Origin: Desulfococcaceae bacterium | GTDB lineage: Bacteria > Desulfobacterota > Desulfobacteria > Desulfobacterales > Desulfococcaceae | Length of the DNA: 64,000 nt | NCBI GenBank assembly: GCA_046541515.1 | Contig: JBKHDD010000005.1 | Span: 647-64,646, forward strand | Reading direction: 5' to 3' | Shown: one piece after another, positions 1 through 61,866 of the stretch | How the letters are laid out: every line of letters starts with the position of its first letter | Numbering within the stretch: position 1 is the stretch's first letter | Notes under the pieces: generated by a model | Databases searched by the model: none | What the model saw: only the letters and a program-made list of their open reading frames with translations | Told to the model about the DNA's origin: nothing | Program-made: the position numbers and the translations under genes

Positions 1-1
1 T

Positions 2-79
2 TTTACCATTGTGGATGCTCCTCGGGCCGGTACCGTCTTAACTCCGGAGGAGGTTCGACAAGCGCATGAAAATTGGTAA
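2..79 (+). CDS. 3' end (25 codons) of an unidentified CDS entering from the left edge
   Basis: The frame is open from the window edge to TAA at 77-79. It reads FTIVDAPRAGTVLTPEEVRQAHENW*, a balanced protein-like tail that is too short to assign to a family. Confidence 0.25.
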   Translation, partial: FTIVDAPRAGTVLTPEEVRQAHENW

Positions 80-436
80 ATTTGTTTGAATCGACGCCAT
101 ATCCGAATTGTCGATATGAAGAAACTATGGGCCGGCGTCAATTTCCGCCAACACCGGAACATGATCCGAAGATCGATACGGCGTCGGCCGGCAGAAGCGG
201 ATCGTCGCTTCGGATTTGCCTTCGGCCTCGTAGTCCGGCAGATCGGATTCGTCGGCGTTGACGGGCCATGCGGTGGTCCCGGTCGCCCGCGTCGCCAAGA
301 ACGGGCCGGCAAGGGCGTGGCATAGGTAGCCGGCCGCGCCGTCGTGGACGTAGGCCTAGGCGGCGGAACCAGGGAGGCGCACAGCCTTTGGGAATTCATT
401 TTTTTTGTAATTCTAATTTGATAGGTTGTTCGGCTG

Positions 437-476
437 GCGGCTTTCTCCACCTTATTGTAAAGGGGGAGAAAGCCGC
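437..476. repeat. perfect 12-bp-stem inverted repeat in a non-coding leader
   Basis: GCGGCTTTCTCC (437-448) pairs with GGAGAAAGCCGC (465-476) across a 16-nt loop. It is followed directly by the 12-bp palindrome CTGTTCGAACAG (476-487). Confidence 0.8.
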
Positions 477-807
477 TGTTCGAACAGCCTGCCAAGGTTG
501 AATTAGTAAATTAACGGAATTCATTTTTCATTTTTCGGGTTTTTTATTTATCCTGATTCAAGATCGTGGTTGTCGGCGTCTCCGCGTTGTGATAAAATTC
601 CAAGGTTGATTGGACGAGGCATTCCATTCATTTGGGTCTGCCGGTTTCCCCGGGTCCTTTTTCCGACGACGCCGGTCAATTCCACTTTGGCAAGTTGTTC
701 GGGCATGGGTTTTCTCTCCATTTTGTAAAGGTGACCGGGGAGTTTTTAGGGCCGGAAGACTCCGTTTCCACTTTTAAAGCGCCAATCCGCCAAAGTAGAA
801 TTAAGAT

Positions 808-887
808 CAATACCGTTCATTTTGGCGAAAATTTGGAGGGGCGAATCGCATTCGTCCTTGGAAATCCCAAATTGAACGCCATTGCGG
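808..887. repeat. miniature TIR-bounded repeat element, 80-bp copy
   Basis: Starts CAATACCGTTCATTTTGG and ends CCAAATTGAACGCCATTG (imperfect terminal inverted repeats). Central hairpin GGGCGAAT-cgc-ATTCGTCC lies at 839-857. Direct TTAAGAT repeats flank it at 801-807 and 888-894. Related copies lie at 6948, 14053, 34766 and 61609. Confidence 0.8.
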
Positions 888-1085: not shown

Positions 1086-1113
1086 CAATGCCGTTCACTT
1101 TGGGATTTCAGAA
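1086..1113. repeat. solo terminal fragment of the same repeat family
   Basis: CAATGCCGTTCACTTTGGGATTTCAGAAG matches the end CACCGTTCACTTTGGGATTTCCAAAG of the copy at 6948. No central hairpin or second end follows. Confidence 0.6.
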
Positions 1114-1144
1114 GAAAAAAGAAAACCACGCAAAGGAGACGCAC

Positions 1145-6884: not shown

Positions 6885-6947
6885 AGGCGAACCCGCCCCC
6901 GGGAACGAAGAGTTTCACTCGTCGCCCGGTTTCCGGCCAAGCCCCGA

Positions 6948-7048
6948 CACCGTTCACTTTGGGATTTCCAAAGGGCGAACGGGCCCGATTGTCCGAGGGC
7001 GAATGCAATTCGCCCCCCCGCAAATTTTCGCCAAAATGAACGGTATTG
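6948..7048. repeat. miniature TIR-bounded repeat element, 101-bp archetype copy
   Basis: Ends are CACCGTTCACTTTGG ... CCAAAATGAACGGTATTG. Perfect central hairpin GGGCGAAT-gca-ATTCGCCC lies at 6997-7015. It is flanked by the 13-bp direct repeat GGCCAAGCCCCGA (6935-6947 and 7049-7061) and sits between convergent genes. Confidence 0.85.
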
Positions 7049-7121
7049 GGCCAAGCCCCGATTCGACGAGTGCGACTCGTCGCTCCCAAAGGCCCCGGGT
7101 TCGGGATTTGCGGCGAACCCC

Positions 7122-14012: not shown

Positions 14013-14052
14013 GCGCGGGACAGAATTCCGTCGAAAAATTCCCCAGCCCCGG

Positions 14053-14146
14053 AACCGTTCATTCCCGGGAAAATGGCAGGGGCGTATCCCATGCGCCCAC
14101 CGTCAATCCGACACGATTGCCCCTTTGAAATCCCAAGCCGAAGGGC
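14053..14146. repeat. miniature repeat element, diverged copy
   Basis: Begins GGAACCGTTCATTCCCGGGAAAAT and has central hairpin GGGCGTAT-ccc-ATGCGCCC (14080-14098). It ends ..TTTGAAATCCCAAGCCGAAGGGC and sits between convergent prfC and the REC-CheW gene. Confidence 0.65.
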
Positions 14147-14294
14147 GCGGCAGCTTGCCCCCTCTTGAAAATCCGGCAAAGAGTCCGGACATCCCCGCCA
14201 AAAACAAAAACGCCCCGGGCTGCCCATTTGGGCCTCCCGGGGCGTTGTCCTTTGCGTTCCCCGCGACGTCTTCGGCGAAAATTCTCCCCCGGCG

Positions 14295-28283: not shown

Positions 28284-28352
28284 CGGGGATCGAATCGAAG
28301 AAGTCTTAATTCCATTTTCTTGGAGGAAACCCAAATTGAAGGCGATAGGTTT
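28284..28352. repeat. partial, degenerate copy of the miniature repeat family
   Basis: CTTGGAGGAAACCCAAATTGAAGGCGATAGG aligns with CTTGGAAATCCCAAATTGAACGCCATTG of the copy at 808-887. The central part is only loosely similar and the other end is missing. Confidence 0.4.
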
Positions 28353-33446: not shown

Positions 33447-33500
33447 GCGGTTTCACCGGATTTAAGCGATTTGCGGAGATTGAAATGGCGTACGGGCACA

Positions 33501-33634
33501 CCGCCGGGGAATAAATTTCCCGGCTCGAACCGAAAAAGCCAGCCAAAGCGGGCGCCCTTGCCCCCGGATCGAAAGAGGCTGAGCTTCTTTTAGGGCGCTT
33601 TTCGGAATGAGCCGGGGGATTTATTCCCCGGCGG
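33501..33634. repeat. 24-bp inverted repeat pair; each arm is itself hairpin-prone
   Basis: CCGCCGGGGAATAAATTTCCCGGC (33501-33524) and GCCGGGGGATTTATTCCCCGGCGG (33611-33634) are reverse complements with 2 mismatches. The right arm sits 8 nt downstream of the EEP gene stop. Confidence 0.7.
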
Positions 33635-33641
33635 CCAGGCC

Positions 33642-34694
33642 TTACGGAGATGGCATGGAAACGGTGGCGGGGGAATCCAACGCGGCCTGCCGGACCGGGC
33701 GGGATTCCGCCGCCACCGCCGGGGATTTGGTGGAGACCGGGGCAATCTCCGCGACGACGCCCAAGTGATCCGACAACACGTCGGGGAGCACGCGATAATC
33801 CCGGAATTCCAACTCCGGCGAGATCAAAATCCAGTCCAGCCGCTTTCCGGAAAATGGAAAGGTGTCCAGGTCCGTCGCGTTTTCCCGCCACGTCTTCAGA
33901 TTCAGCCCCTCGGCCAGGGCGCGGACCGCGGATTCGTCGTCGTCCCATTCGCTGTTGAAATCGCCGAGCACGATGCGCGGCGAGGGACGAGGGGAGAGCG
34001 TTCGAATCATCTCCGCAACCTGTCCGGCCCGGACCGACGACCGGGCGAAATCCAGGTGGACCGACACCACGTCCGCGGACCAACCGCCGGGGAATTGGAC
34101 CCGGCTAACAACGAAGCCCTTGGGAAAGGTCGGCGGCGAGGGCGGAAAGGTGACCGAAATCGGAGCGACCGGAACGGAACGGGAAAGGATGGCCGTGCCG
34201 TAGGAAAGCCCGCCGCCGTCCACGTGGGAACCGCGGAGGGAGTAGTCGAATCCCGCGCTTTCCGCCAGCCGGGCCACGTGGTCGAAATCGCCGCTCCAAA
34301 AAGAGGGTCCGTCGGCCTCCTGCAAGGCCACCGCGGCCGGGGATTCGCGGCGAAGCACGCCGGCGACCTCTTCCAGATTGCCCTGGATTTTTTCTCCGCT
34401 TTGGAGCATCTGGCTGAATCCGTCCTTGCGGCCGTGGGCCAGATTCAGGGTCATCACCGTCGCCGCCTGCGGCGTTCGCAAGGCTGCGGGAGACTGGATC
34501 GAAGCCGTCCATCGCTCGGACGGGCGATCGGGCGGGCTTCCCAACGAAGTGGTTCCGTGGGCCCGGACCGGAGGTTGGTCCACGCTGGGTCCGGAAAGGC
34601 AGGAGACCAGCGACAGGCTTACAAAAAGACCGGCAATGGTCCAAAAAAAGAGGAAACGGAGGCGTTTCCAAGAGAAAAACGGTCGTTTTTTCAT
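33642..34694 (-). CDS. endonuclease/exonuclease/phosphatase (EEP) family lipoprotein
   Basis: N-terminus MKKRPFFSWKRLRFLFFWTIAGLFVSLSLVSC (signal peptide plus lipobox). EEP motifs: VMTLNLAHG.., ALQEADG, GTAILSR, VSVHLD, IVLGDFNSE, DWILISP, SDHLGVVAEI. The TTG at 34703 is an alternative start. Confidence 0.88.
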   Translation of the reverse strand: MKKRPFFSWKRLRFLFFWTIAGLFVSLSLVSCLSGPSVDQPPVRAHGTTSLGSPPDRPSERWTASIQSPAALRTPQAATVMTLNLAHGRKDGFSQMLQSGEKIQGNLEEVAGVLRRESPAAVALQEADGPSFWSGDFDHVARLAESAGFDYSLRGSHVDGGGLSYGTAILSRSVPVAPISVTFPPSPPTFPKGFVVSRVQFPGGWSADVVSVHLDFARSSVRAGQVAEMIRTLSPRPSPRIVLGDFNSEWDDDESAVRALAEGLNLKTWRENATDLDTFPFSGKRLDWILISPELEFRDYRVLPDVLSDHLGVVAEIAPVSTKSPAVAAESRPVRQAALDSPATVSMPSP

Positions 34695-34765
34695 GGTTCG
34701 CAAGGGAGAAATGGACCCGCCGCCGCGGGCGGGTTTGGATTTTTCGTCACGGGCGTTGGCCCCAT

Positions 34766-34862
34766 GGCCTTCACGTTGGATTTTCCAATGGAGAACCGTT
34801 CGGGATTGAACGGGGGCGTGTGGGAAACGCCCACGCCGATTCGCCGCGAAATGAACTTTCCG
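34766..34862. repeat. miniature repeat element, diverged copy
   Basis: Begins GCCTTCACGTTGGATTTTCCAATGG, has a GC-rich central dyad GGCGTGTGGGAAACGCCCACGCC, and ends ..GATTCGCCGCGAAATGAACTTTCCG. It is colinear with the 6948 copy and lies between the EEP gene start and the ettA stop. Confidence 0.6.
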
Positions 34863-34873
34863 AGCCGTTGGCC

Positions 34874-60306: not shown

Positions 60307-61608
60307 TTGAGCGACCTGGACCTCTCCCGTTTTCACGACGCGGTGATGGAACGCCCTCCCATTCGGCCTGCGGGGCGCGTCATGCGCGTGGCGGGCCTCA
60401 CCGTGGAGGCCAGCGGCCCGCCGGTTCCGGTGGGCGGCCTTTGCCGCCTGGAGCCGGGCATCCGTGCCGAGGCGGTGGGCTTCCGGGAAGGCCGCCTGTT
60501 GCTCATGCCCCTGGAGCCGCTCCAGGGCGTCTACCCCGGCGGACGGGTGTTCGCGGAGGAAGCGCAGGCGGGCGTCCCCGTGGGCGAGGGCCTGCTGGGG
60601 CGCGTGCTGGACGGGCTGGGCGCGCCCACCGACGACCGGGGACCGATCCGAACCGAGGGCCGCTATCCTCTGTACGCCGACGCGGTCAACCCGTTGCTCC
60701 GCCGCCGCATTCGGGAACCGCTGGAAACCGGCGTCCGGGCCATCGACGCGCTAACGACCCTGGGCCGGGGCCAACGAATGGGCATCTTCGCCGGTTCCGG
60801 CGTGGGCAAAAGCGCGCTGCTGGGGATGATCGCCCGCAACTGCGCCGCCGACGTCAACGTGGTGGCGCTCATCGGCGAGCGGGGCCGGGAGCTGAACGAT
60901 TTTCTGGAGCGGGACCTGGGGCCGGAAGGGATGGCCCGGTCGGTGGTGGTGGTGGCCACCTCGGATCAACCGGCGCTTATCCGGATGCGGGCCGCCTGGA
61001 CCGCCGCGGCGGTGGCCGAATATTTCCGGGACCGGGGCCGGCAGGTGTTGCTGATGATGGATTCGCTCACCCGGTTCGCCATGGCCGGGCGGGAGGTGGG
61101 GCTGGCCGCCGGAGAACCGCCCACCAGCAAGGGCTACACGCCGTCCATCTTCGCCGCCCTGCCCCGGCTGCTGGAGCGGGCCGGCAACGGCGCGGGGCCT
61201 GGGGGAATCACCGGGCTGTACACCGTGCTGGTGGAGGGAGACGATCCCAACGAACCCATCGCCGACGCGGCCCGGGGCATTCTGGACGGCCATCTCTGGC
61301 TGACCCGGGAACTGGCGGCCCGGAATCACTATCCCGCCATCGACGTGCTGGAAAGCGTCAGCCGGACCATGCCCGACACGGCGACCCCGGAACACCGGGC
61401 CCTGGCGGGCCGCCTGCGTTCCACCCTGGCGGTCTACCGCCGCGCCGAAGATCTGATCGCCGTGGGCGCCTACAGCAAGGGCGGGAGCCGGGAAATCGAC
61501 GAGGCCATTCGAAGAATCGACCGGATCAACGCCTTCCTTCGCCAGGACATGGCCGAATCGTCTTCGTTGGCGGATACGATGAAGGCGCTGGAGGCCATTT
61601 TCGTCTAA
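60307..61608 (+). CDS. fliI: flagellum-specific ATPase FliI
   Basis: TTG start in the track. Walker A GIFAGSGVGKSALLGMI and Walker B VLLMMDSLTRFA, plus SITGLYTVLVEGDD-type segment (ITGLYTVLVEGDDPNEPIADAARGILDGHLWL..HYPAIDVLESVSR). Confidence 0.95.
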   Translation: MSDLDLSRFHDAVMERPPIRPAGRVMRVAGLTVEASGPPVPVGGLCRLEPGIRAEAVGFREGRLLLMPLEPLQGVYPGGRVFAEEAQAGVPVGEGLLGRVLDGLGAPTDDRGPIRTEGRYPLYADAVNPLLRRRIREPLETGVRAIDALTTLGRGQRMGIFAGSGVGKSALLGMIARNCAADVNVVALIGERGRELNDFLERDLGPEGMARSVVVVATSDQPALIRMRAAWTAAAVAEYFRDRGRQVLLMMDSLTRFAMAGREVGLAAGEPPTSKGYTPSIFAALPRLLERAGNGAGPGGITGLYTVLVEGDDPNEPIADAARGILDGHLWLTRELAARNHYPAIDVLESVSRTMPDTATPEHRALAGRLRSTLAVYRRAEDLIAVGAYSKGGSREIDEAIRRIDRINAFLRQDMAESSSLADTMKALEAIFV

Positions 61609-61720
61609 GGCCATTCGCGGGAAAATTTATACTCCCAGAAAGACGAGCGCCCCGCTTCGAGCCCAAATGGGCGAATGCGATTCGCCCGCGATTTTGGATT
61701 AAATTGAACGGGATTGGGTG
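61609..61720. repeat. miniature repeat element copy inserted in the fliI-fliJ spacer
   Basis: Perfect central hairpin GGGCGAAT-gcg-ATTCGCCC at 61669-61687. The flanking ..CGCGGGAAAATTT.. and ..GATTTTGGATTAAATTGAACGGGATTGG resemble the ends of the 808 and 6948 copies. Confidence 0.65.
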
Positions 61721-61866
61721 CAAGGCGATTGGCGGAAGGAAATCAAACCGTTCGGAGTTTCGCCTTCAGGCGGCTCCGCGTCGAGGCGTTCCGCATTTCC
61801 GGAGCGTCCGTTCCGTCCAACGCCGGTACGCCAAGCTCGACAGTGCAAGATTAAAAAAGGAATTTC

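Follow-up and report, generated by a model that had tools for sequence, protein, structure and literature searches.

Classical MITEs are intergenic units that can fold into hairpins, number in the tens per genome and rely on a transposase that is supplied in trans. Correia of Neisseria, RUP of Streptococcus and ERIC/IRU of the enterobacteria are non-coding MITEs of approximately 100-150 bp with terminal inverted repeats (TIRs). Correia and RUP duplicate the dinucleotide TA and are tied to other IS families, which for RUP is of the IS630 type. In the Bacillus cereus group, the MIC231 are non-autonomous cassettes derived from IS231, which are mobilised in trans, generate duplications of about one helical turn, and carry passenger genes together with CAT-type IS231 ends.

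IS231 constitutes a subgroup of the IS4 family (PMC2266710). In the IS4 subgroup of this family, elements of 1.4-1.65 kb have ends of the type -AATR--------WTW---- and are flanked by direct repeats of 10-13 bp (PMC2266710 Table 1), with relaxed conservation of the first base and a striking target specificity (PMC2266710). The IS4Sa subgroup has the signature CA------T and repeats of 8-10 bp (PMC2266710 Table 1). BrickBuilt, from Porphyromonas gingivalis, is a MITE that contains a minisatellite and produces duplications that are variable in length (PMC4596501).

The repeat analysed here is dispersed over a stretch of 64,000 nucleotides of a Desulfococcaceae bacterium, which is referred to as the window. 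Its ends are IS4-like and its duplications 10 bp long, and it represents an undescribed family of MITEs in the Desulfococcaceae/Desulfobacterales, for which no published MITE description was found. It is very probable that the dispersed repeat is a family of TIR-bounded MITEs, flanked by 10-bp duplications and mobilised by a transposase that is encoded elsewhere.

Copies in the window and their surroundings

The window was searched with a profile HMM (nhmmer) built from 19 full copies, 18 from other genomes and copy B of the window, and with a covariance model of the three-helix structure, run with the filters off. Five full copies and one solo left end were found in the 64 kb (Table 1), and the covariance model retrieved the same five full copies. 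The elements are non-coding and range from 77 to 106 nt. The top match across 20 shuffled windows (1.28 Mb) was 8.2 bits, versus 21.8-98.8 bits for the six matches in the window. Orientation is defined, given that the covariance score of copy A is 104 bits on the plus strand and 25 bits on the minus strand. The preliminary description had placed copies near 808, 14053, 34766 and 61609, which are supported by the HMM and the covariance model with adjusted boundaries, and a solo end at 1086, which is supported by the HMM. A partial copy that it had proposed at 28284-28352 found no support (nhmmer E = 10, and no covariance-model match up to E = 10) and was dropped as a chance-level score.

Table 1. 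Coordinates of the family copies, their parts and two other repeats. Positions are those of the window unless a locus (L number) is given.
Feature	Coordinates	Strand	nhmmer match in the window	Covariance model (bits)	Basis or remark
Copy A, full-length MITE, 104 nt	6945..7048	+	6947-7048 (+), 98.8 bits, E 7e-30	104	nhmmer and covariance model; 90% identity to consensus
Copy A, left target-site duplication, 10 bp, GGCCAAGCCC	6935..6944	.			identical to 7049-7058
Copy A, left TIR, CGACACCGTTCACTTTGG (family consensus CAATRCCGTTCAYTTTGG)	6945..6962	+			pairs with 7031-7048
Copy A, internal hairpin 1, GGGCGAAC...GATTGTCC	6973..6994	+			helix 2 of the pair count
Copy A, internal hairpin 2, GGGCGAAT-gca-ATTCGCCC	6997..7015	+			helix 3 of the pair count
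Copy A, right TIR, CCAAAATGAACGGTATTG	7031..7048	+			sequence, alignment, pair count
Copy A, right target-site duplication, GGCCAAGCCC	7049..7058	.			identity to 6935-6944
Copy B, short 77-nt variant without hairpin 1	808..884	-	808-884 (-), 57.6 bits (partly circular, since copy B is among the 19 training copies)	68	nhmmer, covariance model, sequence
Copy B, decayed duplication	798-807 GAATTAAGAT / 885-894 CGGTTAAGAT				7/10 matching
Copy G, solo left end, CAATGCCGTTCACTTTGGGATTTCAGAAG	1086..1114	+	1086-1114 (+), 21.8 bits, E 6e-6, model positions 1-29		start of the Big_1 surface-protein gene lies 32 nt downstream
Copy C, full length, decayed	14050..14150	-	14054-14142 (-), 53.6 bits	70.5	covariance model, nhmmer; 69% identity to consensus; subfamily with hairpin 2 of the GGGCGTAT/ATACGCCC type; duplication no longer recognisable
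Copy D, decayed	34762..34863	+	34766-34856 (+), 35.1 bits	54.5	covariance model, nhmmer; 62% identity to consensus
Copy D, duplication	34752-34761 GGCGTTGGCC / 34864-34873 GCCGTTGGCC				9/10 matching
Copy E, heavily decayed left end	61612..61716	+	61641-61716 (+), 23.7 bits, E 1.6e-6	22.3 (61606-61716, E 0.007)	left boundary inferred from the duplication register
Copy E, duplication	61602-61611 CGTCTAAGGC / 61717-61726 GGTGCAAGGC				7/10 matching
Further copy, between fliP and fliQ	L184 20778-20868				~5.4 kb past the window end
Second MITE-like family	window 395-510, 700-800; L008 7362-7478; L014 1330-1450; L051 6738-6860
Third repeat	window 33489-33646; L012 1567-1644; L081 7435-7487

Rereading of the region 6935-7061 confirmed the left end CACCGTTCACTTTGG, the right end CCAAAATGAACGGTATTG, the presence of GGCCAAGCCCCGA on both sides and the perfect hairpin GGGCGAAT-gca-ATTCGCCC. 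For the element itself, initially delimited as 6948-7048, the inverted ends and the right boundary stand, but the start is at 6945, where the first bases CGAC are a decayed CAAT. The direct repeat of 13 bp that had been reported around this copy is in fact the 10-bp duplication GGCCAAGCCC followed by three coincidental bases, because the element, with its decayed first bases CGA, happens to start with the same bases that follow the right duplication. In the case of copy B, the TTAAGAT flanks are indeed repeated, but they are what remains conserved of a 10-bp duplication that has decayed.

Gene neighbourhoods were taken from public gene calls for Desulfococcaceae MAGs with exact matches to window proteins (GCA_964596765.1, contig CAZQVO010000003.1; GCA_046541375.1; and others), and the claim that all copies are intergenic holds against these calls. 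Copy A separates a hypothetical gene from a convergent TetR gene, and copy C separates RF3 from a convergent gene for a CheW-response regulator. Copy D is flanked by two minus-strand genes (for an ABC-F ATPase and an Exo_endo_phos protein), being antisense to both. Copy E is found between fliI and fliJ in the sense orientation, while copy B and the solo end G are located in the repeat-rich leader of a gene for a Big_1/invasin-like protein of 1,590 amino acids. The orientation of the copies with respect to their neighbour genes is mixed, and no gene family is consistently adjacent. Naive ORF calls for the CAYFVR01 context were discarded as unreliable at this G+C, with copy E being put in a spurious 979-aa ORF.

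The flagellar cluster holds two copies in opposite orientations, one between fliI and fliJ and the other, which is antisense, between fliP and fliQ. At the fliI-fliJ insertion, the duplicated target includes the stop codon of fliI (CGTCTAAGGC). Within 1086-1146, an A-rich segment comes after the solo left end G, and then come a Shine-Dalgarno-like AAGGAG and the start codon (ATG) of the Big_1/invasin-like gene, so that a truncated copy makes up part of the 5' leader of this gene. Immediately to the right of copy A, positions 7064-7082 form a perfect 8-bp hairpin (CGACGAGT-gcg-ACTCGTCG), the left arm of which also pairs with 6917-6925 (CACTCGTCG), on the opposite side of the insertion. Copy A therefore landed inside a pre-existing palindromic structure between convergent genes.

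Two other repeats were observed. The second MITE-like family is about 120 nt long, with the ends TTCTACTTTGGTAGG...CCAAAGTAGRA, and a partial copy of it abuts copy B in the window. One variant of this family is a 51-nt inverted repeat at 403-510, and L008 contains a complete copy that sits within a member of the first family and has a CTAC duplication on its flanks. The third repeat is a 48-nt inverted repeat pair containing CCGGGGAATAAATTTCCCGG, which CAYFVR01 has as well, in one case immediately next to a MITE copy.

Target duplications and distribution across genomes

The family consensus has 102 nt (CAATACCGTTCACTTTGGGATTTCCAAAGGACGAATGTGCCGGATTGTCCGAGGGCGAATGCAATTCGCCCCTACAAATTTTCGCCAAAATGAACGGTATTG), with 18-bp TIRs (CAATRCCGTTCAYTTTGG) at its ends and two internal hairpins as its core. 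When 185,579 species-representative genomes were scanned for the left-end 18-mer CGTTCANTTTGGGATTTC, at least 97 stretches were obtained, with two genomes making up most of the matches listed. The copies are dispersed and occur in both orientations. More than 35 near-identical full-length copies are present in the MAG CAYFVR01 ('uncultured Desulfobacterales bacterium'), and 12 of the 30 non-window copies have at least 95% identity to the consensus, although the identities of the CAYFVR01 copies are biased upward because these loci were fetched by an exact 18-mer match. Run as the preliminary description suggested, the genome scan and the flanking-duplication test gave over 35 additional copies in a relative, a duplication fixed at 10 bp and conserved inverted ends.

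None of the 80 metagenome loci (900 kb) that encode an RF3 with 59-82% identity contains a copy, and the 20 matches to a 17-mer in viral contigs are at chance level, with zero real copies among them. The family is thus confined to a narrow lineage. A blastn search of plasmids with the consensus returned one 20-nt chance match only. One copy with a perfect duplication (TGTTTAAAGG) was observed at L052 968-1070, on a contig of 8 kb that had been binned as Wenzhouxiangella (Gammaproteobacteria), which could be the result of either mis-binning or horizontal transfer.

For the analysis of the flanks, 32 copies were extrapolated to the model ends, and the 10 bases before the element were compared with the 10 bases after it. 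The identity of the flanks is 74% in the 10-bp register versus 23-38% in the shifted registers. Duplication lengths of 6-9 and 11-14 give no comparable excess, with lengths of 9 and 11 reaching only about 0.4 versus 0.74 at 10, and the length of 13 bp was rejected since the register tests over 6-14 favour 10 bp alone. A 10-bp target duplication is found around every well-preserved copy, and it is perfect (10/10) in seven copies, for example CGCCTAAAGG, CATTTAGGTG, ACCCTAAAGG, GGTTTGGCGG and, in the window, GGCCAAGCCC. The 20 targets that were reconstructed have the consensus SSYYTARNSS, with T at position 5 in 16 of them, A at position 6 in 14, and G or C at positions 1, 2, 9 and 10.

Copies A, C and E and the fliP-fliQ copy are present in every same-species assembly that reaches the site (two assemblies for copy A and four for copy C). 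The metagenome collection does not contain the exact sequence of an empty site for copy A, and no paralogous empty sites were found in the examined loci, so that the search for empty sites that had been suggested gave none. The relatives found are too distant for this comparison, with an RF3 identity of 82% or less. Given that no empty site was found, the movement of the element is deduced from its footprints and was not observed. The copies of the window's species are fixed and, for the most part, degraded; with identities of 62-90% to the consensus, they look like old and probably inactive relics. In CAYFVR01, where the loci were fetched by the exact 18-mer, many copies have 95-99% identity and perfect duplications, which points to a recent burst.

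Source of the transposase

For the MITE to move, a DDE transposase encoded elsewhere would bind both inverted ends, excise the element and link each of its 3' ends to a target phosphate, with a stagger of 10 bp between the two, and the repair of this stagger would create the 10-bp duplication. From the sequence of the ends and the length of the duplication, we infer that the source of this transposase is probably the IS4 subgroup of the IS4 family; no autonomous partner was found in the examined sequence. The element end, which reads C-AATR-CCGTTCAC-TTT, fits with CAATRCCGTTCAYTTTGG every specified position of the signature of this subgroup, and the 10-bp duplication is within its range of 10-13 bp. 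The left end of IS4 from Escherichia coli K-12 (TAATGCCGATCAGTTAAGGAT) is identical to CAATGCCGTTCACTTTGGGAT at 16 of 21 positions, a level reached by only 1-2 of 1.8 million background positions. In relatives of IS4 whose proteins are 67-68% identical, the ends are the same and the duplicated targets measure 12-13 bp, an example being CCCCTTTAAGGGG, which resembles SSYYTARNSS.

The main remaining alternative, which is clearly less likely, is that the MITE is mobilised by a transposase from outside the IS4 subgroup, either from IS4Sa, ISH8 or IS231 within the IS4 family or from another family with duplications of approximately 10 bp, such as ISAs1 or IS481. The ends of ISAs1 start with CAGGG (ISfinder), which counts against this particular source. 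The right end of the element is weaker in its match to the IS4 ends (12-13 of 21 positions), which favours a source of this kind, whereas the match of the left end (16/21), found at about one in a million background positions, opposes it. That no cognate transposase was found in the examined sequence is also compatible with a source outside the subgroup. The ends of the element are CAAT, versus the CAT of IS231 and ISH8 (PMC2266710). Nonetheless, CAATACCGT agrees with IS4Sa as well, the signature of which is CA------T with 8-10 bp repeats (PMC2266710 Table 1), and for this reason the assignment to the IS4 subgroup is probable but not unique.

The search for the partner of an IS4-subgroup MITE covered the window, approximately 330 kb of CAYFVR01, approximately 300 kb of Cephaloticoccus and related metagenome loci amounting to 900 kb, and it retrieved neither an autonomous element with these ends nor an IS4-like transposase. 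The autonomous IS with the same ends that the preliminary description proposed to look for was likewise not encountered in the approximately 1.6 Mb of examined sequence, where no unpaired ends more than 300 bp apart were found either, the candidates being nested or tandem copies or chance matches. A tblastn search with InsG of E. coli over the examined sequence gave nothing better than E = 0.4, and a homology search with InsG yielded solely enterobacterial IS4 copies among the 120 matches listed. No candidate DDE transposase (YREK motif, Nterm_IS4 and DDE_Tnp_1) recognising the ends was identified in the examined sequence. For the window, no transposase domain is found among the gene calls over 2.3-24 kb and 31.4-64 kb, which, together with the search for IS4-like proteins over the whole window, agrees with the earlier statement that it contains no transposase.

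In Cephaloticoccus capnophilus CV41, a verrucomicrobial symbiont of the ant gut, a repeat of about 330 nt was observed at approximately 40 loci (within L010-L100), with 36-nt inverted ends (CCACTRCGCGTGGGGCGGCAG...GCACCC). Just inside its end there is a motif of 18-20 nt (CCCGTTCAATTTGGGATTTC) that the left end of the MITE carries too. This repeat was rejected as a member of the family, given its length, its different 36-nt ends and the fact that just this subterminal motif is shared. The motif common to the MITE and to the Cephaloticoccus repeat may represent related transposase-binding sites or a coincidence. As the shared motif, CCGTTCAATTTGGGATTTC could mark a cross-phylum group of IS4-like transposases that bind it.

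Internal hairpins and comparison with known systems

The pairing of the three helices (the inverted ends, hairpin 1 and hairpin 2) was counted on an alignment of 33 sequences. Overall, 87.7% of the cells are paired, versus 33-47% when the partners are slid by 1-3 columns, and double-sided changes occur in 14 pairs versus the 5.4 expected from shuffles. In helix 1, formed by the 18-bp inverted ends, 88.9% of the cells are paired over 31 distinct sequences. Helix 2 (hairpin 1) has 76.8% of its cells paired, with AU/UA, GU/AU and UG/CG alternations, and this hairpin is a perfect 8-bp stem (GGTCAATC/GATTGACC) in one subfamily and contains G-U pairs in the main one. The observation that the central stem keeps its pairing despite changes in sequence was borne out for helix 3 (hairpin 2), where 96% of the cells are paired; six sequences have UA in place of AU, and in one sequence each GC is replaced by CG or by AU. 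Nonetheless, the compensatory changes are few and follow mostly subfamily lines, so they argue weakly for selection on structure.

Hairpins 1 and 2 together form a quasi-repeat of 24 nt. A variant of 77-78 nt that lacks one unit (hairpin 1) exists in both genomes, as copy B of the window and at L097 4767-4844. In two copies of CAYFVR01 (L095 4335-4764 and L008 4548-4807), the 60-nt core with the two hairpins has been amplified to a tandem array of at least 4-5 units with 97% identity, partly masked as N, within otherwise normal copies whose duplications still match at 8 of 10 positions. The hairpins are structurally conserved and could serve for the binding of the transposase or a host factor, or have an effect on flanking transcripts. 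A scan of the element for promoters and terminators found no consensus.

The pairing that is kept via compensatory and G-U-preserving changes, the amplification of the core as a minisatellite in some copies and the retention of copies within the flagellar operon have led to the consideration of the two-hairpin core as a selected module. In that case, the 60-nt core may be a protein-binding DNA or RNA element, or a signal for the processing or stabilisation of transcripts, which the transposon carries into operons. Taken jointly, that the core is such a module and, separately, that CCGTTCAATTTGGGATTTC marks a cross-phylum group of IS4-like transposases is improbable.

It is very unlikely that the repeats are structured non-coding RNA genes or cis-regulatory RNA motifs that owe their copy number to function and not to transposition. 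The fixed-length target duplications are a footprint of transposition for which an RNA family offers no explanation, and there is no constant gene neighbour. Two copies are placed inside the flagellar operon (fliI-fliJ and fliP-fliQ), as an RNA with a function there might be, but orientation with respect to transcription is mixed, with copy E being sense and copy D and the fliP-fliQ copy antisense. The pairing of the two hairpins is kept by compensatory changes, and the G-U pairs of subfamily 1 work on the sense strand only, both of which would suit an RNA, although the compensatory changes are few and largely inherited within the subfamilies. Copy A folds with z = -3.7 on the plus strand and z = -5.0 on the minus strand, which also favours an RNA, but for the decayed copies C, D and E the folding is not better than that of shuffles. 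In Rfam 15 there is no gathering-level match in the window, the best over 6900-7100 having E = 1.6, well below the gathering score.

REPs are single hairpins of 20-40 nt without terminal inverted repeats or target duplications. It is hardly credible that a RAYT (Y1, IS200-like) transposase has spread the repeat as an extragenic palindrome of the REP/BIME type: the repeat shares with REPs an intergenic location, often between convergent genes (copies A and C), and palindromic, G+C-rich stems, but it has 102 nt, 18-bp inverted termini and 10-bp duplications, and there is no Y1 transposase domain among the window gene calls. Of the label MITE/REP-like that was first given to the repeat, the MITE part is thus retained, on the basis of the TIRs and the 10-bp duplications, and the REP-like part is not. 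An IS630/Tc1-type MITE with a TA duplication was rejected because the duplication is of 10 bp and the shorter registers have no excess identity.

As a MITE, the repeat provides a clean and well-delimited family for the Desulfococcaceae/Desulfobacterales, and its masking by annotators would avoid that the hairpins are mistaken for terminators, small RNAs or riboswitches. The 10-bp duplications and the IS4-like ends predict a transposase to be sought in closed genomes of the lineage. The relic copies found here, versus the recent burst in the relative, are a possible marker of strain or lineage history. MITEs are well-known, ordinary selfish DNA, and this family leaves the general understanding of mobile DNA unchanged.

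With Correia, RUP and ERIC the element has in common that it is a small, intergenic and non-coding unit with TIRs, hairpins and many copies. It differs from Correia and RUP in the duplication of 10 bp and in the IS4-like ends, and it has no sequence similarity to any of the three. BrickBuilt is matched by the L095 and L008 copies, which carry the tandem array of the 60-nt core inside their inverted ends, although its sequence, ends and duplications are unrelated to those of the element. MIC231 are, as is proposed for this element, non-autonomous derivatives of the IS4 family bounded by the ends of the parent, but the element is a minimal unit of 102 bp with CAAT ends. With respect to IS4 itself, the element has 102 bp and no transposase gene, versus 1.4-1.65 kb for the IS4 subgroup; its first base is C where that of IS4 is T, the interior is unrelated, and its host is a Desulfococcaceae MAG, while the IS4 used for the comparison is from Escherichia coli. 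The likeness to IS4 resides in the end signature, in the 16 of 21 bases of the left end, in a 10-bp duplication that falls within 10-13 bp, and in targets that are flanked by G+C, centred on A/T and partly palindromic.
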